Shown: in pieces, positions 1,924 to 53,825 of the stretch
Numbering within the stretch: the stretch's first letter is position 1
Layout of the letters: each line of letters opens with the position of its first letter
Assembly: GCA_020725385.1 (NCBI GenBank)
Contig: DYFC01000034.1
Location: forward strand, 1 to 64,000
Length of the DNA: 64,000 bases
DNA from: Nitrospira japonica
Lineage (GTDB): Bacteria > Nitrospirota > Thermodesulfovibrionia > Thermodesulfovibrionales > SM23-35
Reading direction: 5' to 3'
Program-made: the position numbers and the translations under genes
The notes under the pieces: model-generated
Told to the model about the DNA's origin: nothing
The model's input: only the letters and a program-made list of their open reading frames with translations
Database searches by the model: none

Positions 1924-3732
1924 ATGGCAAGTAAACTCGGACAGTTACTCTTAAATTCACAATTAATTACAGAGGAACAATTAAAAGAAGCTATAGCCCG
2001 TCAACGAATGGACGGTGGAAGGCTTGGCACTAATTTAATAAAACTTGGTTTTATAACAGAGGATAAACTTGTTTCTTTTCTGAGCAAACAATGGGGAGTC
2101 CCGGCAGTAAATTTATCCGATTATAAAATAGATGCATCTGTCTTAAGATTAATCCCGTATGAGATTGCGAGAAAATACTCGATTATTCCTGTTGCCCGTG
2201 TTGGAGCAACTTTAACAATAGCAATGGCTGACCCTTCGAATGTCTTCGTGATAGATGATATTAAATTTATGACCGGTTATAATGTTGAAGTAGTTGTTGC
2301 AGCAGAGTCGGCCATTGGTGAAGCGATAAGCAATTATTACAAAGGCTCGGCGGCCATGGTTTCTTCAAAACAGCCTGTTTCTGGCAAAATGATACAGGCA
2401 AAAGATTATACACTTACAAAAGAAGAGTTATATGAAGAAGAGGGAGAAACTTCTGTTGATGAAAGTGTTTCTATAGATGTCGATGAATTTGACAAAGTTG
2501 TAGGGGATGCTCTCGATAGTGTTGAATCTATTTCAGAGCAGGAAGACGCCCTTTCTACAGAGATAGATGAGCCCATTGTAAAACTTGTAAATGGAATCTT
2601 AATAAATGCAATCAAAGGAGGCGCAAGCGATATTCATATCGAACCTTATGAAACAACTCTTCGTGTAAGATACCGTGTTGACGGGGTTCTATTCAATGCA
2701 ATGAATCTTCCTTTGAAAATAAAAAATCCTATTACTTCACGACTGAAAATTATGTCGAAACTTGATATTGCCGAAAGAAGACTTCCACAGGACGGAAGAA
2801 TAAAACTGAGACTCGGGAAAAAGAGAGAGGTTGACTTCAGGGTTTCTGTGCTTCCGACTCTTTTTGGAGAAAAGACGGTTCTTAGAATCCTTGATAAGTC
2901 CAATCTCCAGATCGACCTTACGAAACTTGGTTTTGAAGAGGCTGCACTTAAGAAATTTCTGGATGCACTTAATAAACCTTACGGAATGATTCTGGTTACC
3001 GGTCCGACTGGAAGTGGTAAGACAACGACTCTTTATTCAGCTTTGAATTATCTCAATAATCCGGATCTTAATATAATGACCGCAGAGGACCCTGTTGAAT
3101 ATAACTTCACGGGTATGAACCAGGTTCAGGTAAAAGAAGAGATAGGGCTAACTTTTGCATCAGCCCTTAGGGCTTTTTTAAGACAGGCTCCAAATATTAT
3201 TCTGGTTGGTGAAATTCGTGATTTTGAAACTGCTGAGATTGCTGTAAAAGCTGCATTGACAGGACATCTTGTTTTAAGCACATTACATACGAATGATGCA
3301 CCAAGTACAATAAGCAGATTGCTTAACATGGGGATAGAGCCTTTTCTTATTTCTGCTTCTGTTATTATAATAGCAGCACAAAGGCTTGCAAGAAAAATAT
3401 GTCCTGAATGCAAAAGTGAAGAAAAAGTGCCTGTCCACACTCTTATACAGCTTGGATTTTCCGAAGAAGAAGCCTCATCGGTAACTTGTTATAGAGGCAG
3501 GGGTTGCCCTGTATGCAACGGTTCGGGATATAAAGGAAGAATTGCATTATATGAGGTTATGCCTGTAGGTAGCGAAATAAGAGAAATGATTCTTGAAGGA
3601 GCTTCGGCAGATGATCTTAAGAAAACAGCTGTTCGTCTTGGCATGAAAACATTACGCATGAGCGGACTTAGAAAAGTTAAAGAAGGCATAACTTCGATTG
3701 AAGAGGTTATGAGAGTTACTTTTGGAGATTAA
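1924..3732 (+). CDS. pilB: Type IVa pilus assembly ATPase PilB, copy 2 (tandem paralogue)
   Basis: Same 602-aa length and motifs as copy 1; RQAPNIILVGE variant. Confidence 0.95.
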   Translation: MASKLGQLLLNSQLITEEQLKEAIARQRMDGGRLGTNLIKLGFITEDKLVSFLSKQWGVPAVNLSDYKIDASVLRLIPYEIARKYSIIPVARVGATLTIAMADPSNVFVIDDIKFMTGYNVEVVVAAESAIGEAISNYYKGSAAMVSSKQPVSGKMIQAKDYTLTKEELYEEEGETSVDESVSIDVDEFDKVVGDALDSVESISEQEDALSTEIDEPIVKLVNGILINAIKGGASDIHIEPYETTLRVRYRVDGVLFNAMNLPLKIKNPITSRLKIMSKLDIAERRLPQDGRIKLRLGKKREVDFRVSVLPTLFGEKTVLRILDKSNLQIDLTKLGFEEAALKKFLDALNKPYGMILVTGPTGSGKTTTLYSALNYLNNPDLNIMTAEDPVEYNFTGMNQVQVKEEIGLTFASALRAFLRQAPNIILVGEIRDFETAEIAVKAALTGHLVLSTLHTNDAPSTISRLLNMGIEPFLISASVIIIAAQRLARKICPECKSEEKVPVHTLIQLGFSEEEASSVTCYRGRGCPVCNGSGYKGRIALYEVMPVGSEIREMILEGASADDLKKTAVRLGMKTLRMSGLRKVKEGITSIEEVMRVTFGD

Positions 3733-3748
3733 AATAAAGGGGTGATTT

Positions 3749-4840
3749 ATGGCAACACTGTATGATTTGTTAAAAATGATGATTGAAAAAAATGCATCGG
3801 ATTTGCATGTTACTACCGGCAGTCCACCAAGACTTAGAATAGATGGAAAACTCATAAACATTGATCACCCGCCTCTTGCACCTGCAGATACGAAAGCATT
3901 ATGTTACAGCATATTAACTGATGCCCAGAAGCATAAATATGAGGAGAACAACGAACTTGATCTTTCATTTGGTGTAAAAGGTCTGAGCAGGTTCAGAGCT
4001 AACATATTTATGCAGCGCGGGGCTGTAGCCGGGGCATTCAGAACAATACCCTTTGAAATACGGGGATTTAAAGAATTGGGCCTTCCTGAAATTGTCAATG
4101 AACTTGTGAAAAAACCCAGAGGACTTATTCTTGTAACCGGTCCTACCGGAAGCGGAAAGTCAACAACTCTTGCAGCAATGGTTGACAAGATTAACTCCGA
4201 AAGATATGACCATATAATAACGATTGAAGACCCGATAGAATATCTTCATCCTCATAAAAAATGTCTTATAAACCAGAGAGAAGTCAATGCAGATACTGTT
4301 TCGTTTAAATCAGCTTTAAGATATGTTTTAAGGCAGGACCCTGATATTGTTCTTATAGGTGAAATGAGGGACCTCGAGACCATAGAAGCTGCCTTAACTG
4401 TTGCAGAAACAGGTCATATGACTCTGGCGACATTACATACTAATTCCGCTGTTCAGACAATCAACCGAATTATTGATGTCTTCCCACCCCATCAGCAGGA
4501 GCAGATAAGGGTTCAATTATCTTTTGTGCTTGAAGGAATTTTTGCCCAGCAACTTATACCAAGAAAATCGGGACAGGGCAGGGCGCTGGCTGTTGAACTT
4601 CTTGTGCCCAATCCGGCTATAAGGAATCTTATCCGTGAAGACAAAATTCATCAGATTTATTCTATGATGCAGACCGGTCAGGCCAAGTTTGGCATGCAAA
4701 CAATGAATCAGTCTTTGTATGAATTATATTCCAAAGGGATAATAACCTTTGAGGATGCTGTGGGTAGATCTCCGATACCCGATGAAATATTGCAGATGAT
4801 AAATAAAGGTGCCCAGGCATCCCAGGGTAGGAGGTCTTAA
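3749..4840 (+). CDS. pilT: Twitching motility retraction ATPase PilT
   Basis: GPTGSGKST, LRQDPD, TLHT and AIRNLIRE signature. Confidence 0.96.
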   Translation: MATLYDLLKMMIEKNASDLHVTTGSPPRLRIDGKLINIDHPPLAPADTKALCYSILTDAQKHKYEENNELDLSFGVKGLSRFRANIFMQRGAVAGAFRTIPFEIRGFKELGLPEIVNELVKKPRGLILVTGPTGSGKSTTLAAMVDKINSERYDHIITIEDPIEYLHPHKKCLINQREVNADTVSFKSALRYVLRQDPDIVLIGEMRDLETIEAALTVAETGHMTLATLHTNSAVQTINRIIDVFPPHQQEQIRVQLSFVLEGIFAQQLIPRKSGQGRALAVELLVPNPAIRNLIREDKIHQIYSMMQTGQAKFGMQTMNQSLYELYSKGIITFEDAVGRSPIPDEILQMINKGAQASQGRRS

Positions 4841-40803: not shown

Positions 40804-42231
40804 TTAAGTTATTAATTTTCTCGTGTCCCAGAATTTCCATTTTAGGTAGTCATTAATGCCTTTAGCTGCTTTTCTGCCTGCACCCATCGCAAGAATTACT
40901 GTTGCAGCGCCTGTAACAATATCACCTCCTGCAAATATGCCGGGTTTTGAAGTCATTCCTGTTTCATGGTCAGCGATTATATAATTTTTCTTGTTAAGAG
41001 CAAGATCTGGTATTGTGCTGGTTAGCAATGTATTCGACCTTGTTCCTATAGCAGGTATTGCAACATCTATATCAAGCTTAAACTCGCTTCCTTTTATTGG
41101 TACAGGTTTCCTCCTTCCAGAAGCATCAGGCTCGCCAAGTTCCATTTTTATACATTCAACAGCACAAACATTTCCTTTGCCATCATCAATGAATTTTAAT
41201 GGAGCAGTGAGAAACATGAATTCAATTCCTTCTTCTTTTGCGTGATGTATTTCTGCTTTCCTTGCAGGCATTTCTTCTTCAGAGCGACGGTAAATGAGAT
41301 ATACTTTTTCCGAGCCAAGCCTTAAAGCAACTCTTGCAGCATCCATTGCAACATTGCCGCCTCCAAATACAGCTACATTTTTTCCTTTTTTAATAGGTGT
41401 ATCATATTCGGGAAAAAGATAAGCTTTCATAAGATTTGCTCTTGTAAGAAATTCATTCGCAGAATAAATTCCATTTAAGTTTTCACCCGGAATTCCAAGA
41501 AAAACAGGCAGTCCCGCGCCTGCCCCAATATAACATGCATCATAACCCTGTTTATTCATGAGGTCATCTATAGTAAAAAGTTTCCCTATTACCGAATTAA
41601 GTCTTATCTCAACTCCGAGCTTTTTTATATATTCAACTTCTTTTTCAACTATAACCTTTGGCAATCTGAATTCCGGTATCCCGTAAATAAGGACTCCCCC
41701 GGGTTTGTGGAGTGCTTCAAACAATGTAACCCGATGTCCTTCTTTTATAAGATCTGCTGCGCATGAAAGTCCTCCGGGTCCGGAGCCGATTACAGCAACT
41801 TTTCTTCCTGTTGATTTAGGTTTTTCCGGTATTTGTATTTCACCGCTTTCACGTTCAAAATCAGCGACAAATCTTTCAAGATTACCAATTGCAACTGGCT
41901 CTCCTTTTTTTCCAAGAATACATCTTGATTCGCACTGTATTTCTTGAGGACAAACTCTTCCACATACAGCAGGCATTGCATTTTCTTCTTTTATTTTCCA
42001 TGCTGCTTCTATAAATTTTCCTTGTTTAATTAATTTAATAAATGCAGGTATATCAATCGATACAGGGCATCCTTCCCTGCATGTAGGTTTTGCACAATTT
42101 AAACAACGGGAAGCTTCTTCAACAGCTTCTTTAGGAGAATAACCAAAAGGCACTTCATCAAAATTTCTTGCTCTTATTATAGGGTCCTGTTCTCTCATCC
42201 TGATTCTGCTTTTTTGTTTCTTTTCTTCCAT
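40804..42231 (-). CDS. nfnB: NfnB/SudA, large subunit of NADH-dependent reduced ferredoxin:NADP+ oxidoreductase (GltD-like)
   Basis: CLNC...C..GCP and CGRVCPQE.QCE Fe-S motifs, GSGPGG, GGGNVAMD; paired with nfnA; no gltB nearby. Confidence 0.88.
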   Translation of the reverse strand: MEEKKQKSRIRMREQDPIIRARNFDEVPFGYSPKEAVEEASRCLNCAKPTCREGCPVSIDIPAFIKLIKQGKFIEAAWKIKEENAMPAVCGRVCPQEIQCESRCILGKKGEPVAIGNLERFVADFERESGEIQIPEKPKSTGRKVAVIGSGPGGLSCAADLIKEGHRVTLFEALHKPGGVLIYGIPEFRLPKVIVEKEVEYIKKLGVEIRLNSVIGKLFTIDDLMNKQGYDACYIGAGAGLPVFLGIPGENLNGIYSANEFLTRANLMKAYLFPEYDTPIKKGKNVAVFGGGNVAMDAARVALRLGSEKVYLIYRRSEEEMPARKAEIHHAKEEGIEFMFLTAPLKFIDDGKGNVCAVECIKMELGEPDASGRRKPVPIKGSEFKLDIDVAIPAIGTRSNTLLTSTIPDLALNKKNYIIADHETGMTSKPGIFAGGDIVTGAATVILAMGAGRKAAKGINDYLKWKFWDTRKLIT

Positions 42232-43061
42232 TATTTCACCCCTGCTTTATAGTGTTCCATGGCAATTTTTTCTTCATCAATATACATTCTTTGCCTTGAC
42301 ATTAAGAGATTGAAATCAACCTTATGTCCATCGAATTCAGGTCCATCAACACATGCAAATTTTGTTTCACCGCCGACTTCAACCCTGCATGCTCCACACA
42401 TTCCTGTTGCATCAACCATTATGGAATTCAGACTGACAATAGTTTTAACATTATGTTTTTGAGTAGTAATGCATACAAATTTCATCATTATCGCAGGTCC
42501 AATTGCATAAACGAGTTTTACACTTTTATCTTCATGCAAAATTTCATCAACAGGCACGGTAACAACAGCTTTTCTTCCGTAAGAACCATCATCGGTTACA
42601 ACTATCAATTCATCCGATACACTTCTCATTTTGTCTTCCCAGAAAATGAGTTCTTTCATTCTTGCTCCAATTATAGATATTACAGTATTGCCTGCTTCTT
42701 TTAATGCACGTGCAATAGGATAAACAGGTGCGATTCCAACACCGCCTCCAACACAAATAACTTTGCCAAAATTTTCAATATGCGAAGGAATTCCGAGAGG
42801 ACCTATAACATCTGTAATATAGTCACCTTCGTTTAATGTAGAAAGCTCATGGGTAGTTTTACCGATTTTTTGGAAAACAGTTGTAATAGTTCCTTTTTCT
42901 CTGTCAAAGTCTGCTATTGTAAGGGGAATTCTTTCTCCTTTTTCATGAATGCGAAGCACAAAAAAATTGCCTGCCTTTGCTTTTTGTGCTATTTCTTTTG
43001 CATCAATTACAAATAGAACTACAGCATCAGACAAGATCTGTTTTTCGAGGATTTTGAACAT
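42231..43061 (-). CDS. nfnA: NfnA/SudB, small FAD/[2Fe-2S] subunit
   Basis: ERIPLTIAD, GGGVG, MVDATGMCGACRV...CVDGPEF. Confidence 0.9.
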   Translation of the reverse strand: MFKILEKQILSDAVVLFVIDAKEIAQKAKAGNFFVLRIHEKGERIPLTIADFDREKGTITTVFQKIGKTTHELSTLNEGDYITDVIGPLGIPSHIENFGKVICVGGGVGIAPVYPIARALKEAGNTVISIIGARMKELIFWEDKMRSVSDELIVVTDDGSYGRKAVVTVPVDEILHEDKSVKLVYAIGPAIMMKFVCITTQKHNVKTIVSLNSIMVDATGMCGACRVEVGGETKFACVDGPEFDGHKVDFNLLMSRQRMYIDEEKIAMEHYKAGVK

Positions 43062-43361: not shown

Positions 43362-43733
43362 ATGCCTGGAACGTATTTGCCAACAGAATATTTACCGGTT
43401 TTGATTTTTATACTCGTTGCAGAGGCGTTTGGTTTTGGCGCACTGTTAATAGGAGTAGTATTCAGACCTAAAAAGCCTTACCTTGAAAAATTACTGCCTT
43501 ATGAATCAGGTATTGATCCCAAAGGAGAACCTCGCACAAGATTTGCAATTCGTTTTTATATAATAGCAATGCTTTTTGTGGTTTTTGATGTTGAAGCAAT
43601 TTTTATTTATCCATGGGCAATTGTATTTGATAAGATCGGCATATTTGCATTTATTGAAATGGTTATCTTTATTCTGATACTTTTAGTCGGATACATCTAT
43701 GCCTGGAAAAAAGAAGCTTTTGTCTGGGATTAA
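43362..43733 (+). CDS. nuoA: NADH-quinone oxidoreductase subunit A
   Basis: K..PYESG, FY..AMLFVVFDVE..F.YPW. Confidence 0.96.
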   Translation: MPGTYLPTEYLPVLIFILVAEAFGFGALLIGVVFRPKKPYLEKLLPYESGIDPKGEPRTRFAIRFYIIAMLFVVFDVEAIFIYPWAIVFDKIGIFAFIEMVIFILILLVGYIYAWKKEAFVWD

Positions 43734-43758
43734 AATACCTAACAGGGGGTTATTGTAG

Positions 43759-44277
43759 ATGCTGGATACATCGAGTTTAGGCCTGATTCAAGTGCAGCAG
43801 GATGTTAAGATACTGCCTCCAAATGCTATTATTACGACTTTTGACAAAATTATTAACTGGGGCAGGCTTTCATCTATATGGCCTATGACATTCGGACTTG
43901 CTTGATGTGCTATTGAGATGATGGCCGTGGGCGCATCACATTATGATTTTGACAGGTTCGGTGTTATTTTTAGAGCTTCACCCCGACAGGCAGATTGCAT
44001 TATAATCGCAGGCACAGTTACTAAGAAAATGGCTCCAATTGTAAGAAGAGTTTATGATCAAATGCCTGAGCCGAGATATGTTATCTCTGTTGGAAGTTGT
44101 GCATGCACCGGAGGGATTTTCAAAACATACAGCACAGTACAGGGTTGCGATACTTTCCTGCCGGTTGATGTTTTTATCCCTGGTTGCCCTCCAAGACCCG
44201 AGACATTTCTTGAAGGTGTAATGTTGCTTCAGGAAAAAATAAGAAAAGAACAGGCGAGGTGGAGTCCATGGCGGTAA
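43759..44277 (+). CDS. nuoB: NADH-quinone oxidoreductase subunit B, 172 aa with in-frame TGA at codon 49 (probable selenocysteine)
   Basis: [16 protein letters not shown]-[TGA 43903-43905]-[25 protein letters not shown]; the ORF track shows only the part after the TGA. Confidence 0.9.
43919..43938 (+). promoter_or_regulatory. Candidate SECIS hairpin of nuoB
   Basis: TGATG-GCC-[GTG]-GGC-G-CATCA; loop G at +22 after UGA. Confidence 0.6.
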
Positions 44278-44849
44278 CCGAAGTTGTAGCAGGTTTGTAT
44301 CCTGCCGGAATAGAGCAGGAAAAAATAGCTGAAATGATAAAAGAAAAATTTCCCGAGCAGGTAATTGATGTTACCAATTTCAGGGATCAGGTTGCTGTTA
44401 TTATAAAGAAAAATCAGAGTTTTTCAATCCTTAAATATCTCCATGATGAACCAACTCTTAGTTTTGACCATCTTAGAGATCTAACTGCTGTTGACTGGTC
44501 TAATAAAAAAGAAGTAAGATTTGAAGTCGTTTATAATCTTTTATCAACAAAATACCGTCATATACTAAGAATAAAAGTACAGGTTCCGGAAAATGACGTG
44601 AAAATTGCTTCGGTTGTGCCGATATGGGCAGGAGCAAATTGGCATGAACGTGAATGTTTTGATATGTTCGGAATTCAATTTACAGGTCATCCCGATTTAA
44701 GAAGAATTTTAATGCCAGAGGACTGGGAAGGTTATCCATTGAGAAAAGATTATCCTTTAAAAGGATATGAAGGAGATAAAGACTGGCCTGGATTTATTCA
44801 AGTTATTAAAAGATCTCAAGAACTGAAGGAGTTTGAGTGGCATGATTAA
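44259..44849 (+). CDS. nuoC: NADH-quinone oxidoreductase subunit C
   Basis: [31 protein letters not shown]. Confidence 0.95.
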
Positions 44850-46311
44850 GATGCAGGAGCCTGAAAAGATTTTTGAGACGAGAGAACTGAATGTTAATAT
44901 GGGGCCACAGCATCCGGCTACCCATGGGGTATTAAGAGTTGTATTGGACCTTGATGGTGAAACTATTGTCAGACTTACTCCATACGTTGGTTATCTGCAT
45001 CGTGGTATAGAAAAGCTCGGTGAAAGTCTGAGTTATTTTCAGGCATTGCCTTTAACAGACAGGATGGACTATGTCTCAGCAATGTCCAATAATATAGGTT
45101 ATTGCGTAGCTGTTGAAAAACTTTATGGAATAGAACCTCCGCCAAGAGCAAAATTCATAAGAACAATTGTTGGAGAGTTGTCAAGAATTTCAAATCATCT
45201 CTTATGGCTTGCAACACACGCTCTTGACATCGGCGCAATGACAGTCTTTCTTTATTGTTTCAGGGAAAGAGAATGGATACTTGAATTATTTGAGATGATA
45301 TGCGGTGCAAGACTTACCGTTACATATCCAAGAGTTGGTGGAGTAAGAAACGATATATCCAAAGAATTTATAGATCATCTCGTAAAATTCCTTGCAGAAT
45401 TTCCTTCAAGAATACTTGAATATGAAACATTAATTGATCAGAATAGAATCTGGCTTCAAAGGACTGTAGGTATTGGTGTTATCTCTGCTGAAGAAGCCAT
45501 TAACTGGGGAATGACAGGACCTACATTAAGAGGTTCTGGAATTCCGTATGATATTAGAAAATTTATGCCTTATGATGCCTATGATCAGGTTGAATTTGAA
45601 ATTCCTATAGGTACCGCAGGCGATACATATGATAGATACCGTTGCAGAATGCTTGAAATGAGGCAGTCTGTAAAAATAATCATACAATGTCTCGAGAAAC
45701 TTCCTGCCGGTCCTGTAATGGCTGATGCTCCAAAGTTTGTACTTCCTCCAAAAGACAAAATGTTAATAATCACACATCCTGTAAATGAAATTGCATATTT
45801 CATAGATGAAAAAGCATGTAAAGGATGTGGAATGTGTTTAAGAGCATGTCCTGCAAAAGCAATAACAGGTGAGAAAAAGAAACCGCATAAAATTGATCAG
45901 GCTTTATGTCTGCAATGTGCCACCTGTTTTGTTACATGTAAGTTCAAGGCTTTAAAAATAGTTCCGGGAGGAAAAGGACAGACAGAGGAGAAACTTGTAG
46001 AGCTTGCAGCGCAGCCTGTTTCGGATGAACTAAAACAGGCTCAAGAAGCACTCGTTGCTCATTTTGATTTCATAAAGAAAGGACCCAAGGTTCCTGAAGG
46101 TGAAGTATATGTAGCAACAGAAGTCCCGAAAGGAGAGCTTGGATTCTATTTTGTCAGTGATGGTACGCATAAACCATATAGAATGCGTGTTAGGTCGCCA
46201 TCCTTTATTCATGCAGGATGTCTTGAAAGACTCTGTAAAGGGCATTTGGTTGCGGATGTTATAGCTAATATTGGAACGATTGATATCGTTCTTGGAGAGT
46301 GTGACAGGTAG
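44842..46311 (+). CDS. nuoD: NADH-quinone oxidoreductase subunit D with inserted 2x[4Fe-4S] ferredoxin domain
   Basis: [31 protein letters not shown]; insert [12 protein letters not shown]...[11 protein letters not shown]. Confidence 0.95.
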
Positions 46312-46314
46312 AAT

Positions 46315-47373
46315 ATGAATATGGCAAATGTAATAAGTCCTACAACTGTTGATGCTTTAATTAAATTTGGCATTGATGTAGCTATTATTCTTCTTAAAAT
46401 AGTAATAGTTCTTGCGGTTGGCTTACTTCATGTAGCATATGCAACATATTTCGAACGTAAAGTAATAGGTCATATGCAGGTAAGACTTGGACCAATGAGG
46501 GTTGGACCTCACGGTCTTCTTCAGCCTTTTGCTGATGGTATAAAACTTTTCTTTAAAGAAGACATAATCCCTGCTCAGGCTGATAAAGTAGTCTTTTATA
46601 TTGCTCCTATTATTTTTATGGCTGCTGCAATGGTTAATTTGTCCGTAATTCCATTTGATGCAAATTTTGTAATTGCTGATATTAATGTTGGATTGCTTTT
46701 CATCTTTGCGATGGCTGGAGTTGGTGTTTATGGAATATTTATATCAGGATGGGCATCAAATTCAAAATATGCATTCATGGGAGGACTTAGATCATCTGCA
46801 CAGGTTATAAGTTATGAAATTGCGATGGGTCTCAGCCTTGTTGGTGTTATGATGATGGCGGGTTCTTTAAATCTCTCGGATATAATCAGGGCACAAGGTG
46901 AATCAATATTTGGCATGTACGCTATCCCCCAGTTTATAGGATTTATAGTATTTGTAATTGCTGCAGTTGCAGAAACAAACAGAACACCGTTTGATTTGCC
47001 CGAAGCCGAAAGCGAATTAGTAGCAGGTTATTTTACAGAATATAGTAGTTTCAGATTTGCTCTATTCTTTCTTGGCGAATATATAGCAATGATTCTTATG
47101 GCGTCATTATGCACAATATGTTTCCTCGGTGGATGGACATTGCCATGGTATGTTTTGAAAATTTTCCCGTTCCTTAGTTATGTGCCGGGAGTTGTATGGT
47201 TTGTGTTGAAAGTTTATGCATTTTTCTTCTTCTATTACTGGATAAGAGCAACAGTACCAAGATACAGATACGACCAGTTTATGGCTATAGGCTGGAAGAT
47301 TTTAATTCCGGTTGCGATAGGAAATATATTATTAACAGGTCTTGTGAAAATTATTTTGAAAGAGGTATTGTAG
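46315..47373 (+). CDS. nuoH: NADH-quinone oxidoreductase subunit H
   Basis: ERKV...MQ.R.GP, PFADGIKL..KE, NRTPFDLPEAESELVAG. Confidence 0.96.
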   Translation: MNMANVISPTTVDALIKFGIDVAIILLKIVIVLAVGLLHVAYATYFERKVIGHMQVRLGPMRVGPHGLLQPFADGIKLFFKEDIIPAQADKVVFYIAPIIFMAAAMVNLSVIPFDANFVIADINVGLLFIFAMAGVGVYGIFISGWASNSKYAFMGGLRSSAQVISYEIAMGLSLVGVMMMAGSLNLSDIIRAQGESIFGMYAIPQFIGFIVFVIAAVAETNRTPFDLPEAESELVAGYFTEYSSFRFALFFLGEYIAMILMASLCTICFLGGWTLPWYVLKIFPFLSYVPGVVWFVLKVYAFFFFYYWIRATVPRYRYDQFMAIGWKILIPVAIGNILLTGLVKIILKEVL

Positions 47374-47374
47374 C

Positions 47375-47899
47375 GTGACATTCAAACATTTCATTAAAAC
47401 AATTACCTTTATAGAAATATTGAAAGGTATGGCTTTAACATTAAGAAGGATGTTTTCTAAGGCAGTTACAATACAATATCCCGATGAAAGAAGAAAGATT
47501 GCGCCTGGTTTTAGAGGGCAACATGCTCTTTCAAAACGTGGCGGGAAAGCAAAATGTGTTGGTTGCGGATTATGCGCTACAATATGCCCTTCGCAATGTA
47601 TAAGCATAACGAGAGAAAAAGGTCAGGTTACAAAATATCAAATAGAGCTTCTAAGATGTATATATTGTGGATTTTGTGTTGAAGCTTGCCCGTATGGAGC
47701 TATCTCTCTAACTGAGAATTATGAATATTCTTCTTACAACAAACAGGATTTAATGATGACAAAGGAAAAATTATTATCAAACTGGGATAAATATATGCCC
47801 GGTACAAAAGGCGAAGAATATTACAAAAAATTCTGGAGGCCTATGTCAGAGGATTTCGGTACACCTCCCGGACAGGCAATGTATGGAGGTAAAAGATAA
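47375..47899 (+). CDS. nuoI: NADH-quinone oxidoreductase subunit I
   Basis: TIQYP, FRG.H, CVGCGLCATICP, CIYCGFCVEACP. Confidence 0.95.
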   Translation: MTFKHFIKTITFIEILKGMALTLRRMFSKAVTIQYPDERRKIAPGFRGQHALSKRGGKAKCVGCGLCATICPSQCISITREKGQVTKYQIELLRCIYCGFCVEACPYGAISLTENYEYSSYNKQDLMMTKEKLLSNWDKYMPGTKGEEYYKKFWRPMSEDFGTPPGQAMYGGKR

Positions 47900-48411
47900 T
47901 GGTATCCATAGGCTTTTTTATATATTTTGCTTTTGCAATTGTAGTTCTTTCATTGCTTGTAGTAACAAGAAGGAATCCTGTTCACAGTGTTTTATGGATG
48001 CTTCTTTTGTTTTTCCATATAGCAGGAGTATATTTGTTCCTTAACGCTGAATTTATGGCTGCAATACAGGTCATTGTATATGCAGGAGGTATCCTTGTTT
48101 TATTCTTATTTGTTGTTCTTTTAATGAACTTACGAGAAGAGTTATCAATAGGTAAATACACCACATTTGGCCCGACAGGTTTTACTTTCGCTTTAGGACT
48201 TTTTGTAGCTGTTTCTATGGCACTGAGTTCTTTTATAGCTGCGCCTCCCGGCAAATATTCAATAGATTTAATCAAGCAGGAGACACATGTAAAAGCACTC
48301 GGTAAATTGTTATATACAGAGTTTATTTATCCTTTTGAAATTGCTTCTTTGATTCTTTTAGTTGCAATGATTGGAGCAATAGTCCTTGCGAAAAGGAGGC
48401 TTAAGAGTTAA
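47899..48411 (+). CDS. nuoJ: NADH-quinone oxidoreductase subunit J
   Basis: NPVHS, QVIVYAGGI.VLFLFV, FE..S..LL.AMIGA. Confidence 0.95.
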   Translation: MVSIGFFIYFAFAIVVLSLLVVTRRNPVHSVLWMLLLFFHIAGVYLFLNAEFMAAIQVIVYAGGILVLFLFVVLLMNLREELSIGKYTTFGPTGFTFALGLFVAVSMALSSFIAAPPGKYSIDLIKQETHVKALGKLLYTEFIYPFEIASLILLVAMIGAIVLAKRRLKS

Positions 48412-48412
48412 G

Positions 48413-48718
48413 ATGGCGGTTCCATTAAGCTGGTACATGTTATTGAGTCTTGCTGTATTTTCAATCGGTGTGTTTGGTTTTCTTTCAAGAAGAAACATTA
48501 TTATTATGTTAATGTCTATAGAATTAATGTTAAACGGAGTAAATATTAATTTAATCGCTCTCAGTCATTATATTCAGGATTTAAGGGGCCAGATACTTGC
48601 GTTTTTTGTGATAGCGGTTGCAGCAGCCGAGGCGGCGATTGGACTTGCGATTGTGATTGCGATGTTCAGGAACAGGGCAACTGCGCATGTTGATGAAATC
48701 AAAGAGATGCAGGGTTGA
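48413..48718 (+). CDS. nuoK: NADH-quinone oxidoreductase subunit K
   Basis: RRN.I..LMSIELMLN, AAAEAAIGLA. Confidence 0.95.
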   Translation: MAVPLSWYMLLSLAVFSIGVFGFLSRRNIIIMLMSIELMLNGVNINLIALSHYIQDLRGQILAFFVIAVAAAEAAIGLAIVIAMFRNRATAHVDEIKEMQG

Positions 48719-48747
48719 TTAACAAATGAGTATAGAGGAATAAGAAT

Positions 48748-50832
48748 ATGGCAAATATGGAATTACAATGGTATCATGTTTTAATACCTTTTCTTCCGCT
48801 AACCGGTTTTATAATTAATATTCTACTTGGCAAAGAAGTAACCAGATATAAAGCTCACTGGTTTGCTGTTTCTTCTGTTTTTGGTTCATGGCTATGTTCG
48901 CTCGCTACATTACAGGATGTTCTTGGAGGCAAGATAATCGATGCCGATCTTTATACATGGATACTTTCAGGCACATTTAAGGTAGGGGTGGGATTTTTAA
49001 TTGATCCTTTAACTGCAGTTATGCTCATTGTTGTTACAACCTGTGCAACTTTGATTCATATTTATGCAATAGGTTATATGCATGGTGACACAGGTTATTA
49101 CAGATTTTTCTCATATCTGAATCTTTTCACATTCTGTATGCTTATGCTTGTAATGGGCAATAACTTCCTCCAGCTTTATTTCGGATGGGAAGGTGTAGGA
49201 CTTTGCTCTTATTTCTTGATTGGATATTATTTCAATAAAAAATCTGCTGCAGATGCTGGAAAGAAAGCCTTCATAGTCAATAGATTCGGCGACTTTGGTT
49301 TTGGAATCGGTGTTTTTATGGTCTTTTTAACATTTGGAACTTTACACTATGCTGATGTTTTTGCGAATGTTAGCAGTATTGCCGGTAAAACAGTCAATTT
49401 TCTTGGTTTAAATGTTGACCTTCCAACATTGATTGCACTATTACTTTTTTGCGGTGCGGTTGGAAAATCAGCCCAGATTCCATTACATGTCTGGCTTCCA
49501 GATGCAATGGAAGGTCCCACACCTGTCAGCGCATTAATCCATGCTGCCACAATGGTTACAGCGGGTGTATTTCTCGTTGCAAGATGCAATCCTATTTTCA
49601 ACCTTTCTGAAATTGCAATGAATACAGTCGCAATTATCGGGGCGTTGACAATGTTCTTTGCAGCAACAATCGCTATAACGCAAAATGATATAAAAAGAAT
49701 TATAGCTTTTTCTACATGTAGTCACTTAGGTTATATGTTTCTTGCCTGTGGAGTTGGAGCTTATGCAGCAGGAATATTCCATCTTTACACCCATGCATTT
49801 TTCAAAGCACTTCTATTTCTTGCAGCAGGTAGTGTAATTCATGCAGTTCATACAAATAATATTCAGTTTATGGGTGGATTGAAAAAATATATGCCTATTA
49901 CATACGCGGTTTTCGTTATTGCTGGGTTAAGTGCCGGCGGATTTCCCGGTCTTTCCGGATTCTTCAGCAAGGATGAGATTATATGGTCTGCATATGCTTC
50001 CCATTCAAGCGTAGGTAAATTTGTATGGATACTCGCACTTGCCGGAGCATTCTTTACACCTTTCTATACATTTAGATTAATATTCAGGACTTTCTTCGGA
50101 GAATATCGTGGTGGACTCGAGGCAGAAGAAGCAGCGACTCATGCACATAGCAGTTCACATGGTTCGGGGCATAGTTCACATGGTGCCGGTCATGATTCTC
50201 ACGGTTCAGGACACGACCCGCACGGACATGATTCATCTCATGGTTCCGGACATGATTCACACGGAGGACATGGACATGGTCCCCATGAATCACCTTATAT
50301 TATGACAGTGCCCTTGATGTTTCTTGCTGTTGGAGCAATAGCTGCCGGCTGGGTTGGCATTCCGCCTTTACTCGGGGGAGGAAATCATTTTGCTCATTTC
50401 TTACAGCCTGTTGTAGGCCACCCGGAATTTCATGGCACTCATGCTGAAGAATGGGGTGTAATGATATTATCAACCACAATTGCACTAATTGGCCTGGGAC
50501 TTGCAGCATTTATGTATTTAAGAAAAACCGATTTACCCGAGAGAATTTCAAAACAATTCTCATTGTTATATAAAATTTTATATAACAAATATTATGTGGA
50601 TGAATTTTATAATCTTACTATTGTGCAGCCGACTCTTAAACTTGCAAATAAAGTGCTTGTAGGATTTACAGATGCCAAGATAATTGAAGGTATAGTTAAT
50701 GGTGTGCCTAACTTAATAGGAATATTCAGCCAGAAACTTAGAAGGCTTCAAACAGGAATAGCGCATCATTATGCAATATTTATGGCAGCAGGTGCAGTTT
50801 TTATAGTTGCACTGGTAATTTTATTGAGTTAA
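48748..50832 (+). CDS. nuoL: NADH-quinone oxidoreductase subunit L with His-rich loop
   Basis: GKSAQ.PLHVWLPDAMEGPTPVSALIHAATMV, HAFFKALLFL. Confidence 0.96.
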   Translation: MANMELQWYHVLIPFLPLTGFIINILLGKEVTRYKAHWFAVSSVFGSWLCSLATLQDVLGGKIIDADLYTWILSGTFKVGVGFLIDPLTAVMLIVVTTCATLIHIYAIGYMHGDTGYYRFFSYLNLFTFCMLMLVMGNNFLQLYFGWEGVGLCSYFLIGYYFNKKSAADAGKKAFIVNRFGDFGFGIGVFMVFLTFGTLHYADVFANVSSIAGKTVNFLGLNVDLPTLIALLLFCGAVGKSAQIPLHVWLPDAMEGPTPVSALIHAATMVTAGVFLVARCNPIFNLSEIAMNTVAIIGALTMFFAATIAITQNDIKRIIAFSTCSHLGYMFLACGVGAYAAGIFHLYTHAFFKALLFLAAGSVIHAVHTNNIQFMGGLKKYMPITYAVFVIAGLSAGGFPGLSGFFSKDEIIWSAYASHSSVGKFVWILALAGAFFTPFYTFRLIFRTFFGEYRGGLEAEEAATHAHSSSHGSGHSSHGAGHDSHGSGHDPHGHDSSHGSGHDSHGGHGHGPHESPYIMTVPLMFLAVGAIAAGWVGIPPLLGGGNHFAHFLQPVVGHPEFHGTHAEEWGVMILSTTIALIGLGLAAFMYLRKTDLPERISKQFSLLYKILYNKYYVDEFYNLTIVQPTLKLANKVLVGFTDAKIIEGIVNGVPNLIGIFSQKLRRLQTGIAHHYAIFMAAGAVFIVALVILLS

Positions 50833-50859
50833 AAAGGATAAAACTCTTAGAGGAGAACA

Positions 50860-52401
50860 ATGGAACAGGTAATAATGAATAATCTGAATTACCCCATACT
50901 TAGCACCGTTATATTTCTACCAGTTTTGGGCGCGCTTCTAATTCTCATTAACAGAAGATCATGGGAGACCCTGACAAAATGGATAGCATTGGGAACGAGC
51001 ATTTTAACTTTTATAGCTTCAATTCCTTTATTTACTCATTTTGACAAGACCACCCATAAGATGCAATTTGTAGAGAGATTTTCATGGATTCCCAACTGGA
51101 ATATTTATTATTTTCTCGGAGTTGATGGCATAAGCGTTCTATTTGTTCTTCTTTCGACACTATGCGCTATTCTTTGTGTATTAATATCATGGACAGCAGT
51201 TACTAATAAAATTAAAGAGTTTTATATAGCTATTTTATTAACAACATCTTTTATGATCGGTGTCTTCTGCTCCCTGGATTTTTTCCTTTTTTATCTTTTC
51301 TGGGAAGCGATGCTTATACCTATGTTCCTGATCATCGGTGTCTGGGGCGGACCAAATCGTATATATGCTGCAATTAAGTTCTTCCTTTATACATTAGTAG
51401 GAAGTGTCCTGATGCTTGTTGGAATAATCGTTCTTTATCTTTATTCAGGTAAAACATTTGATATTCTTACAATGATGACAAAGAATTATCCTTATACAAT
51501 GCAAATATGGCTTTTCTGGGCATTTTTTGCAGCTTTTGCTGTTAAGGTGCCAATGTGGCCAGTGCATACATGGTTGCCCGATGCACATACCGAAGCTCCA
51601 ACAGCAGGTTCGGTTATTCTTGCTGCTGTCCTTATTAAAATGGGTGCTTATGGTTTCCTGAGATTTTCATTGCCCCTGCTTCCCGAAGCATCAAAAGCAA
51701 TGACACCTGTTATGTTAACGTTATCAGTTATTGCAATTATTTATGGAGCTATCATATGTTTAGGCCAGACAGACCTGAAAAGACTTATTGCATACAGTTC
51801 GGTAAGTCACATGGGATTTGTAACACTCGGTATTTTTGCACTAAATACACAGGGAGTTGAAGGCGGAATACTACAAATGCTCAATCATGGTGTAGTAACA
51901 GGAGCTCTCTTTTTATCTGTAGGTATTGTTTATGAAAGAACACATACAAGATTAATTGCTGATTATGGTGGTCTTGCTACCGAGATGCCAATATATTCAT
52001 CATTTTTTATGGTGTTTACCTTAGCAGCAATTGGGCTTCCTGCAACAAATGGTTTTATAGGTGAATTCCTGATCCTTTTGGGTGGATTCGCTGCAAATAA
52101 ATGGGCTGGAGTCCTTGCTTGCACTGGAATAATCATAGGTGCAGGTTATATGCTCTGGCTATATCAAAGAGTATTTTTTATGGAAGTAAATCCCAAGCTT
52201 CATGGACTGGTTGATATGAATGTAAGGGAAACTATAGCATTATTGCCCATGTTAATACTCGTATTCTGGATAGGTGTTTATCCTAATTCATTCCTTAGCT
52301 TTATGCATACTTCTGTGCAACATCTTTTAGAGAGAGTTAATAGTGGCGGGATTGCCCAGGAAGCACAGATAGCTAAAAATATTATGGAGGTAATCAGATG
52401 A
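50860..52401 (+). CDS. nuoM: NADH-quinone oxidoreductase subunit M
   Basis: KVPMWPVHTWLPDAHTEAPT, IAYSSVSHMG. Confidence 0.96.
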   Translation: MEQVIMNNLNYPILSTVIFLPVLGALLILINRRSWETLTKWIALGTSILTFIASIPLFTHFDKTTHKMQFVERFSWIPNWNIYYFLGVDGISVLFVLLSTLCAILCVLISWTAVTNKIKEFYIAILLTTSFMIGVFCSLDFFLFYLFWEAMLIPMFLIIGVWGGPNRIYAAIKFFLYTLVGSVLMLVGIIVLYLYSGKTFDILTMMTKNYPYTMQIWLFWAFFAAFAVKVPMWPVHTWLPDAHTEAPTAGSVILAAVLIKMGAYGFLRFSLPLLPEASKAMTPVMLTLSVIAIIYGAIICLGQTDLKRLIAYSSVSHMGFVTLGIFALNTQGVEGGILQMLNHGVVTGALFLSVGIVYERTHTRLIADYGGLATEMPIYSSFFMVFTLAAIGLPATNGFIGEFLILLGGFAANKWAGVLACTGIIIGAGYMLWLYQRVFFMEVNPKLHGLVDMNVRETIALLPMLILVFWIGVYPNSFLSFMHTSVQHLLERVNSGGIAQEAQIAKNIMEVIR

Positions 52402-53825
52402 ATTTCCCCCTTCCTGATCTTAATCCTGTAATGCCTGAAATACTGATGACTGCATTTGCATTAATTGTGCTTTTACTTGATTTGATTGTGAAAAAGAAAG
52501 AAGCTGTAGCTGTAATTAGCATTGCAGGCACAGCAATAGTATCACTAAGTCTTCTAAATACATCAGGCTCTACATTCGGGGGAATGTATATAGCTGACGG
52601 ATATAGCACATTCTTTAAAATCATATTCTTTATAAATGTCATATTAACGATATTGATTTCAATTAAATATATTGCTGTAGAAAGAGTTAATTATGGTGAA
52701 TATTATAGTTTAATACTTTTTTCGACAGTTGGTATGATGATAATGGCCTCAGCTTCTGACCTGATAACGCTTTACTTAGGTCTTGAATTAATGGCATTAA
52801 GCACTTATGTATTAGCCGGATTTATAAGACATAATCTTAAATCGACTGAATCTGCACTTAAATATTTTCTTCTGGGAGCTTTTTCATCAGGATTCTTGCT
52901 CTATGGTATTTCTATTGTATATGGACTTACAGGTACAACGGATATAAAGGCAATAGCAACATTCATAACAGAAAGAGGATTAAGCGGAAATTTATCGCTT
53001 CTTCTTGCGATTGGAATGCTTACTGTTGCGTTTGGATTTAAGATTGCTGCGGCTCCATTTCATATGTGGGCTCCCGATGTATATGAAGGAGCTCCAACTT
53101 CAATAACAGCATTCATGTCAGTTGGCCCAAAAGCAGCTGGTTTTGCTGTTATTGGAAGAGTTTTTATGATAGCTTTTGCAGCTGTAAAAGCAGACTGGGC
53201 AACTATCTTGATCCCGATATCAATTCTTACAATGGCAGTTGGTAACATTGTAGCATTATCACAGACGAACATAAAGAGAATGCTCGCATATTCTTCTATA
53301 GCCCATGCTGGATATGCATTGCTTGGTATAATTACAGCCAACTCAGAGGGTATATCAAGCATGATGAATTATCTCTTTATCTATGCTTTCATGAATATCG
53401 GAGCATTTGCAGTTATCATAATGCTTAGAAGCGAAGGCATAAAAGGTGAAGATTTAAGCGACTATGAAGGGCTTTCAAAAACACATCCTATGGCAGCGGC
53501 TTTAATGCTGATTTTTATGTTTTCATTGACCGGAATCCCACCAACAGCAGGTTTTATTGGTAAATTATATATTTTCATGGCTGCAATTAATGCAGGATAT
53601 ACATGGCTTGTTATTATAGCTGTCATATTTAGCGCTATTTCAGCATACTTTTATTTACGAGTTGTAATGTATATGTATATGAGGGATCCAAAAACTGAAC
53701 TACCTTTAACTACATCCTTTACAAATGGATTAGCCCTTGCAGTTACAACAGCAGCAGTATTGATCATAGGTGTTTTCCCGACAATGCTTGTGGAATTTGC
53801 CCGTGCTGCATTGAAGAGTTTTTAG
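52398..53825 (+). CDS. nuoN: NADH-quinone oxidoreductase subunit N
   Basis: FKIAAAPFHMWAPDVYEGAPT, KRMLAYSSIAHAGY. Confidence 0.96.
   Translation: MNFPLPDLNPVMPEILMTAFALIVLLLDLIVKKKEAVAVISIAGTAIVSLSLLNTSGSTFGGMYIADGYSTFFKIIFFINVILTILISIKYIAVERVNYGEYYSLILFSTVGMMIMASASDLITLYLGLELMALSTYVLAGFIRHNLKSTESALKYFLLGAFSSGFLLYGISIVYGLTGTTDIKAIATFITERGLSGNLSLLLAIGMLTVAFGFKIAAAPFHMWAPDVYEGAPTSITAFMSVGPKAAGFAVIGRVFMIAFAAVKADWATILIPISILTMAVGNIVALSQTNIKRMLAYSSIAHAGYALLGIITANSEGISSMMNYLFIYAFMNIGAFAVIIMLRSEGIKGEDLSDYEGLSKTHPMAAALMLIFMFSLTGIPPTAGFIGKLYIFMAAINAGYTWLVIIAVIFSAISAYFYLRVVMYMYMRDPKTELPLTTSFTNGLALAVTTAAVLIIGVFPTMLVEFARAALKSF

Follow-up and report, generated by a model that had tools for sequence, protein, structure and literature searches.

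The window analysed here, a 64,000-nucleotide stretch of a Nitrospira japonica draft genome from the order Thermodesulfovibrionales (GCA_020725385.1, contig DYFC01000034.1, positions 1 to 64,000 of the forward strand), carries a compact complex I operon on the plus strand, nuoABCD-HIJKLMN (43362 to 53825 in the list of open reading frames (ORFs)). The nuoD gene (44833..46311, + strand) encodes a homologue of the 49-kDa/Nqo4 subunit that is 492 residues long, compared with about 400 in its relatives. The difference is an 89-residue insertion (residues 310-398; 45760..46026, + strand) which, as judged from its sequence, is a ferredoxin domain of the 2x[4Fe-4S] type with predicted cluster binding. 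The domain is genuine and is maintained by purifying selection, and it looks like a transplant of the dicluster domain found at the C-terminus of HydB/NuoF-type flavoprotein subunits. Sequence features and the analogy with the photosynthetic NDH-1 complex suggest that the insertion probably acts as a built-in relay through which electrons enter, or are exchanged with, cluster N6a of NuoI.

A ferredoxin-type domain within NuoD

The NuoD protein matched the family PF00346 (Complex1_49kDa) with an E-value of 2.2e-115 and a score of 384.8 bits (cut-off 24), the match being broken into two stretches. The scores against TIGR01962 and NF004739 were 554.7 bits (cut-off 459.35) and 542.8 bits (cut-off 360), respectively, and that against PF00374, the [NiFe] hydrogenase large subunit family, was 16.8 bits, below the cut-off of 25.8. 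The N-terminal motif, GPQHPATHG, has no cysteine. The quinone-site residues H31, Y80 and D132 correspond to H38, Y87 and D139 of Nqo4, with an ungapped offset of 7 to 2fug_4, and were invariant in 34/34 aligned homologues. With these residues and the NuoI cysteines conserved, the rest of the enzyme looks functional.

A sequence-only reading of this DNA had noted that the segments LPPKDK and QEALVAHF, now separated by the insertion, are normally a few residues apart. This was borne out by the closest insert-less relatives, in which the flanks are contiguous, PPKD(Y/F)IL-KDMEHLIHQF. Residues 16-309 of NuoD aligned with residues 113-406 of the solved chain 7zm7_C, and residues 399-492 with 406-499. 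Since the 49-kDa/Nqo4 chains align to both flanks, the residues of a canonical NuoD are all present at the junction and the insertion is clean. Fifty-four solved 49-kDa/Nqo4 chains aligned around the gap and none through it, in agreement with the earlier statement that canonical NuoD binds no Fe-S cluster; these chains have nothing at the insertion site. The position given earlier for the domain, 45760-46041, was exact, with residue 310 beginning at 45760 and residue 403 finishing at 46041, as was the sequence quoted for it.

The insertion consists of an N-terminal linker, the dicluster domain and a C-terminal linker with a short helix. The ferredoxin-type core (residues 322-378; 45796..45966, + strand) contains an invariant GEKKKPH loop and has a net charge of +7. 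Two CxxCxxCxxxC(P) motifs about 30 residues apart were read from the sequence, C329-x2-C332-x2-C335-x3-C339-P (45817..45852, + strand) and C359-x2-C362-x2-C365-x3-C369 (45907..45939, + strand). The assignment as a 2x[4Fe-4S] ferredoxin domain, also made by the earlier reading, agreed with a hidden Markov model (HMM) scan, in which Fer4-family matches above the Pfam cut-offs were found inside Complex1_49kDa at residues 322-373. Between the two PF00346 stretches, residues 323-345 scored 38.5 bits with Fer4_6 (cut-off 25) and 36.9 bits with Fer4 (cut-off 21.1). An excised segment of 102 residues exceeded the cut-offs of the dicluster models Fer4_21 (38.0 bits, cut-off 35), Fer4_7 (32.8 bits, cut-off 27), Fer4_10 (30.2 bits, cut-off 25.5) and Fer4_9 (28.2 bits, cut-off 27), as well as those of Fer4, Fer4_6 and Fer4_2.

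An AlphaFold2 (AF2) model of NuoD calculated from a deep alignment (72 rows) had a predicted local distance difference test (pLDDT) score of 87.1, exceeding 90 in the core, and a predicted template modelling (pTM) score of 0.83. The predicted secondary structure of the insertion fits a small ferredoxin fold and a linker helix, residues 385-392. A model from the shallow alignment of 34 homologues was discarded, with a mean pLDDT of 51.6 and an unusable core. The top 50 Foldseek matches in the PDB were all complex I 49-kDa/NuoD chains, with template modelling (TM) scores of 0.81-0.96 when normalized by the target. The TM score by the query was about 0.75 because the insertion was unmatched.

Conservation, distribution and authenticity of the insertion

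A search of 5.8 billion proteins, restricted to the region of the insertion, gave 171 matches. Among the 120 matches listed, the first 74 were NuoD proteins of 279-505 residues with both PF00346 and Fer4, and the source labels of the insert-bearing homologues, where given, were metagenome-assembled genomes of Thermodesulfovibrionales or Nitrospirota. The 34 homologues that were aligned were drawn from these 74. All eight cysteines of the insertion and many linker residues were invariant in 34/34 rows; in the reference sequence, P0001, the cysteines are numbered three lower than here (C326/329/332/336 and C356/359/362/366). On average, the 34 homologues were 85% identical to the reference in the NuoD core and 83% in the ferredoxin core; across the whole insertion the value was 72%.

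The distribution of the domain, which the sequence-only reading had proposed to check, was examined in 301 sampled genomes of the class. The insertion was present in 29 of them. The window's family, with 34 sampled members, accounts for 27, and the remaining two are G140, from a neighbouring family, and the genome of the window itself. By type of match, the 29 comprise 27 full-length matches, own genome included, one match that ends at a contig end after residue 424, and G268. All others among the matches listed in this sample end near residue 311 and resume past the insertion. The best 150 of 1.84 billion representatives at 50% identity included 49 NuoD matches in a single stretch, and among these 150 only P0051, the cluster of the window's own family, matched the whole query including the insertion (7-492). 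The single-stretch match of P0260 reaches query residue 352, and this protein, with 401 residues, is itself of insert-less length. In G268 (C9:240000-247000, 3183..4671, minus strand) the insert-bearing nuoD is split into overlapping ORFs of 299 and 207 residues, owing either to a frameshift or to an error in sequencing.

Nothing was found in favor of the view that the insertion is an artefact, whether a chimeric assembly, a mis-joined contig or a mis-called ORF, although the source genome is a draft of 71 contigs. The probability of such an artefact is negligible. The same architecture occurs in the 29 genomes and in 74 protein clusters from several sources, and the reading frame is intact and under purifying selection. 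Moreover, contigs from four public runs belonging to four studies, one of which may be the source sample, cover the insertion region at a likeness of at least 90%. One contig (X2 record 6) spans 45442-46400 and both junctions with 9 differences and no gaps, while others bridge the 5' junction (X5 record 20) or the 3' junction (X3 record 12), again gap-free. The one-contig 3.6-Mb genome G285 has the same architecture. Chimeric assembly is excluded by the contig that crosses both junctions and by the recurrence of the insertion. Thus, neither a chimera nor unconserved cysteines, both of which had been named earlier as possible refutations, held up.

Origin of the insertion

Ranking after the NuoD proteins, among the same 120 listed matches, were 46 NuoF-like proteins of 289-639 residues with PF01512, PF10589 and Fer4. 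The last 55 or so residues of the Nitrospirota NuoF-like proteins are 50-71% identical to the insertion domain. Motifs such as CKGCG(M/A)...(T/F)GEKKKPHKI are common, nearly letter for letter, to the insertion and the NuoF-like proteins P0075-P0120, and the tail following the dicluster domain is also common to the insertion and P0075-P0077. Among solved chains, the insertion aligned to the extreme C-termini of proteins of the HydB/HoxF/NfnB type, namely 7p5h_B (571-626 of 626 residues), 8oh5_B (527-581 of 584), 7q4v_B (544-596 of 599) and 9n5u_B (538-597 of 602). It also aligned to RnfB, and the higher scores of polyferredoxins stem only from repeated matching. The best match within the own genome was the C-terminus of a 592-residue NuoF-like protein on contig C27, with 54.5% identity. 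A Pfam scan of NuoD did not find PF01512 (Complex1_51K), the FMN/NADH-binding domain. On the sequence evidence the insertion is derived from the HydB/NuoF-type family, of which it is not a member, sharing the C-terminal domain only. The resemblance to the C-terminal dicluster domain of HydB/NuoF-type subunits, remarked on in the sequence-only reading, was sustained by the search, the alignments and the solved chains, in which these are the nearest relatives outside NuoD.

Absence of nuoEFG from the operon and a probable single gain of the insertion

The loci compared were that of the window, 14 further insert-bearing loci and nine insert-less ones. The order nuoABCD followed directly by nuoH was found in the window, in 14/14 of the further insert-bearing loci and in G268, while the order nuoABCD-E-F(-G) was seen in four genomes from other families. 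In the window, nuoH (46315..47373, + strand; named by position and size) starts only 4 nucleotides past the end of nuoD, so that there is no room for nuoE, nuoF or nuoG.

The own genome (2.46 Mb, 96.6% complete, 71 contigs) has one complex-I-type NuoD. Five PF01512 matches were found in it. One is RnfC, part of an rnf operon, and the other four are NuoF-like genes, which all have a NuoE-like neighbour in a cluster of soluble type. None of the four is a NuoF of about 430 residues adjoining a complex-I-type nuoG. The clusters on contigs C23, C27 and C13 also have a HydA-, NuoG- or Fdh-like gene. The pair on C3 is cut by the contig end, and its neighbours, as judged from ORF starts, are putatively CODH/ACS-like. 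As far as the PF01512 search goes, no complex-I-type NuoEFG was found in the own genome, which is compatible with the earlier statement that these subunits are missing. A second NuoD-like gene of the own genome (C60:54270-61916) encodes a NuoCD-type fusion of 531 residues and has a NuoB/HycG-like ORF and genes for several large membrane subunits as neighbours; from its sequence this cluster looks like a group-4 hydrogenase or an Ehr-like complex.

In a maximum-likelihood tree of the NuoD core (26 rows, with the insertion columns removed), 18/18 insert-bearing rows fell in one clade with support of 100/99. Outside this clade branched G298 as the sister (92/88), then G248, then G158 together with G274. 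Since the insert-bearing rows are monophyletic in a tree built free of the insertion, the tree is consistent with a single gain. The gain is recent as judged by sequence identity, the NuoD being 84% identical to that of insert-less relatives. The clade of the window's family (100/99) is nested among 14-subunit forms at a NuoD identity of about 70-76%, the broader relatives of the lineage having ordinary operons of the NADH type, and the 11-subunit form of this family looks derived rather than ancestral. A faster divergence of NuoC and NuoI between insert-bearing and insert-less operons was considered as a sign of contact and rejected, because within the insert clade, too, no other subunits evolve as fast as these two.

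Position of the insertion relative to the NDH-1 ferredoxin site

In photosynthetic NDH-1, a ferredoxin bound through basic residues of NdhI and of a C-terminal part of NdhH delivers electrons to the NdhI cluster N6a (accessible sections of PMC6992706 and PMC7021789). The ferredoxin-contacting lysines of NDH-1L are given as K86, K89 and K91 of NdhI and K315 and K321 of NdhH in the available text of PMC7021789, while that of PMC6992706 places the ferredoxin cluster 9.6 Å from N6a and describes ferredoxins as acidic. The C-terminal 94 residues of NuoD were aligned with Thermosynechococcus elongatus NdhH, and residues 21-94 of this segment matched NdhH 321-394 without gaps. NdhH K321 corresponds to K419 of the window's NuoD and K315, by extrapolation, to approximately residue 413, which places them 15-21 residues past the insertion junction. 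Both positions fall in FIKKGPK, at the end of a helix (DSSP 398-415) that begins at the C-terminal junction of the insertion; the segment from the junction to FIKKGPK comprises residues 398-419 (46024..46089, + strand). An attempt to transfer the NdhH numbering through a representative protein found that 0/10 candidates reached the cut-off of the NdhH model, and the numbering by way of P0151, which was only approximate, was replaced by the direct ungapped alignment range.

NuoI (47375..47899, + strand; 174 residues) has two 4Fe-4S motifs, by homology those of clusters N6a and N6b, with Fer4 and Fer4_7 matches. It matched TYKY/Nqo9 chains, and its eight cysteines were invariant in 54 alignment rows. 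Residues 15-127 aligned with NdhI 21-135, so that NdhI K86-K91 falls on NuoI residues 78-85, in the hairpin between the two cluster motifs. This hairpin (residues 76-88, ISITREKGQVTKY; 47600..47638, + strand) is shortened and basic in the insert clade. It was 5-6 residues shorter and basic (ITREKGQ-V) in 16/16 insert-type loci, whereas in 3/3 insert-less loci of the same family it was long and acidic (e.g. FTVEGEEGAKIV). In the 54-row NuoI alignment, the rows nearest to the window had the short form and 20 more distant rows, including the G248 and G158 contigs, had the long form. The mapping of the insert-flanking NuoD segment and of the co-changed NuoI hairpin onto the ferredoxin-contacting residues of NDH-1 is suggestive but not decisive.

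The sequence-only reading had held that an insertion unable to approach NuoI would count against its proposal. No refutation of this kind emerged, in that the attachment site, by analogy, would be sequence-adjacent to the NDH-1 surface that holds ferredoxin by N6a. A docking prediction for NuoI with four 4Fe-4S clusters and NuoD 308-400 gave scores of 0.00 and 0.01 (mark 0.32) and spoke neither for nor against.

The route of electron entry

The sequence-only reading had inferred a tethered electron-entry port in place of the missing NuoEFG wire, a view that was supported in part. The reading of the insertion as an electron relay is favored because the dicluster domain is invariant and of electron-transfer origin, the N-module is missing, the attachment point is next to the apex residues and the core has a charge of +7. 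A dicluster ferredoxin fold is a two-hop wire, and the C-terminal dicluster domain of HydB-type enzymes has a role in ferredoxin exchange. In the mechanism proposed, the dicluster domain, transplanted once from the C-terminus of a HydB/NuoF-type flavoprotein into a surface loop of NuoD, would trade electrons with a soluble partner of low potential. This partner would be reduced ferredoxin or an oxidoreductase that depends on ferredoxin, making the enzyme a ferredoxin-type:menaquinone oxidoreductase, or one that works in reverse. The donor could be free reduced ferredoxin or a docked flavoprotein. The own genome has rnf, as well as putative CODH/ACS- and PFOR-like ORFs, labels that come from ORF reading.

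Several observations weigh against this interpretation. Genomes G248, G158 and G274 of the same family have the order nuoABCD-HIJKL with neither NuoEFG nor the insertion, and therefore an enzyme devoid of NuoEFG does not strictly need the insertion. In G298 (C153:1-2647, a 2.6-kb contig), the sister insert-less NuoD (84% identity) is followed by nuoE and nuoF. The positions equivalent to NdhH K315 and to the NdhI lysines were assigned by offset, with an accuracy of about ±2-3 residues, and one helix (about 18 residues) separates the insertion point from the positions equivalent to the ferredoxin site. Moreover, the hairpin change and the insertion are common to one clade and so represent one evolutionary coincidence, not repeated co-variation. 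The confidence of the AF2 model within the insertion was moderate (pLDDT 55-86). As to G298, another species of its genus, G243, has an insert-type NuoD, and some members may carry, or once have carried, both operon types.

An alternative to the relay is that the insertion is a docking 'ferredoxin' dedicated to one particular soluble flavoprotein and takes no electrons from free ferredoxin; with this flavoprotein it would make up an NAD(P)H-linked, non-homologous head. The candidate partners are two. One is a flavoprotein pair, which we take to be NfnAB/SudAB, divergent from nuoA in the window (40804..43061, - strand) and consisting of an NfnB/SudA-like protein of 475 residues and an NfnA/SudB-like protein of 276 residues; the pair scored 580.5 bits with TIGR01316 (cut-off 471.75) and 417.7 bits with NF004862 (cut-off 220). 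The other, in two genomes, is a NuoE-like and NuoF-like pair. NfnA- and NfnB-like genes lie head-to-head with nuoA in the window and in 10 of the 14 further insert-bearing loci, G268 also shows an NfnA-like start, and no NfnA-like ORF was among those listed at five insert-less loci with upstream sequence, where the flanks are short. At two of the 14 loci (L033 of G186 and L037 of G285), a divergent NuoE-like gene (about 181 residues) and a NuoF-like fusion of about 1055 residues are found instead. Ferredoxin is the natural redox partner of NfnB, and in HydB-type enzymes the parent domain of the insertion sits within a flavoprotein complex. However, the synteny is inherited within one clade and absent in 2/14 loci, and the genes are divergent and not co-transcribed. 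A shared promoter region of 300 bp is uninformative on physical contact. We regard a dedicated partner as unlikely. An extension of this idea, in which the insertion would be the tethered 'ferredoxin' of a new modular head where the NfnAB/SudAB-like or NuoE/NuoF-fusion flavoprotein docks, is more doubtful. If true, the head would be an input linked to NAD(P)H, perhaps of the bifurcating or confurcating kind, rebuilt from parts unrelated to NuoEFG once the latter had been lost.

The insertion could also be structural or regulatory and lie off the main electron path, capping the apex bared by the loss of NuoG or sensing redox state or oxygen. Cluster N7 is a known off-pathway cluster in complex I. 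Electrons presumably enter without the insertion in the insert-less relatives that also have no NuoEFG, the highly conserved linkers suggest a fixed, packed domain, and an extra retained cluster in complex I is mentioned in the accessible part of PMC3144371. Nevertheless, both full cluster motifs are invariant, the parent domain family is an electron-transfer module and the attachment site adjoins residues that map to the ferredoxin site, which leaves a purely structural or regulatory role improbable.

An in-frame TGA codon in nuoB

The nuoB gene (43759..44277, + strand) contains an in-frame TGA at 43903..43905, and PF01058 and NF005012 matched the part downstream of it. The TGA is located at the first cysteine of the tandem CC motif of cluster N2, FGLA-TGA-CAIEMM, and from the sequence it looks like a candidate selenocysteine codon at a ligand position of N2. 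Among 25 genomes compared, 6 had TGA at this site and the others had TGC or TGT. A degenerate DNA pattern containing the TGA was found in 65 of 301 genomes of the class, representing 46 of 152 genera, and the reversed control gave 0. The TGA-type nuoB occurs in both 14-subunit and insert-type 11-subunit operons, and contigs of two other studies hold the identical TGA stretch. The own genome has tRNA-Sec (C13:40088-40185), SelA and two SelB-like genes, the latter indicated by SelB-wing_3 matches at C52:16434-16571 and C15:21101-21238 in ORFs of 645 and 684 residues. The TGA-bearing nuoB genes have a hairpin about 14 nucleotides downstream of the TGA, which overlaps conserved coding sequence. 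A fold resembling a selenocysteine insertion sequence (SECIS), calculated for the 76 nucleotides after the TGA, was no more stable than shuffled sequences (z 0.92), so that the hairpin seen by comparison is the stronger lead. A NuoB with selenocysteine was not found in the literature searched, which covered few subscription journals, and NuoB is absent from the selenoprotein table in the accessible portion of PMC1794560. If the modular head considered above exists, a selenocysteine at N2 in part of the clade would mean that complex I was re-tuned at both ends of its Fe-S wire.

Other subunits of the operon

NuoB, NuoC, NuoD and NuoI were backed by Pfam or NCBIfam models, while the membrane subunits were named by gene order, size and homology between loci only. 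The nuoA gene (43362..43733, + strand), assigned by position, size and homology to the operons of relatives, is the first gene in all compared loci. NuoC is encoded by 44259..44849 (+ strand) and matched PF00329 with an E-value of 1.7e-49. The names of nuoJ, K, L, M and N (47899..53825, + strand) come from order and size. Residues 465-513 of NuoL (50140..50286) form a 49-residue low-complexity stretch rich in His, Gly, Ser and Asp with repeats of the HGSGHDS type, possibly a loop that binds metal or else a variable linker. The length of NuoL among relatives ranges from 641 to 706 residues.

Comparison with known systems

The NuoD of the window has the fold of canonical NuoD/Nqo4/49-kDa subunits (Foldseek TM up to 0.96), HMM scores above the cut-offs, the quinone-site His, Tyr and Asp and the usual place in the operon after nuoC. 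It differs from the canonical protein, which has no Fe-S cluster, by the 89 residues with two 4Fe-4S motifs. A description of an Fe-S domain in NuoD was not found in the full-text literature searched, whose coverage excluded most subscription journals.

The NDH-1 complex of cyanobacteria and chloroplasts likewise has 11 core subunits and no NuoEFG. However, its donor is a free 2Fe-2S ferredoxin whose binding is aided by NdhS, NdhV and NdhO, whereas in the window's enzyme a 2x[4Fe-4S] domain forms part of the NuoD polypeptide itself. Membership in NDH-1 is not proposed, because the source labels of the homologues are Nitrospirota; the analogy is limited to the ferredoxin site. The C-terminal 2x[4Fe-4S] domain of the HydB/NuoF/HoxF/NfnB type resembles the insertion in length and contains both of its motifs as well as the GEKKKPH loop. 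In those proteins, however, it ends a protein with the FMN/NADH-binding domain PF01512, whereas here it is internal to a protein that resembles the [NiFe] hydrogenase large subunit and has no flavin domain.

The 11-subunit enzymes of anaerobes, such as nuoABCDHIJKLMN of Desulfitobacterium hafniense, have the same gene order and also have no N-module. The electron donor of this widespread form of complex I is an acknowledged open question, stated as unknown in the accessible sections of PMC11238625 and PMC3144371, and those sections mention no extra Fe-S domain in NuoD. The insertion offers a concrete candidate for the entry site, a dicluster domain of low-potential type fused beside the NuoD and NuoI segments that map to ferredoxin contacts, and a tethered partner is a natural construct for structural work. 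It is also an example of recent modularity in complex I, given the 84% NuoD identity to insert-less relatives. If the relay reading is correct, it would support ferredoxin-type donors for this class of enzymes and indicate that a domain of 60 residues can take over the function of a lost N-module.

The F420H2 dehydrogenase Fpo, in which FpoF is an alternative input module (available text of PMC3144371), provides a further parallel, a complex I core with an input device other than NuoEFG. FpoF, however, is a separate F420-binding subunit, while the device considered here is a domain inside NuoD itself.

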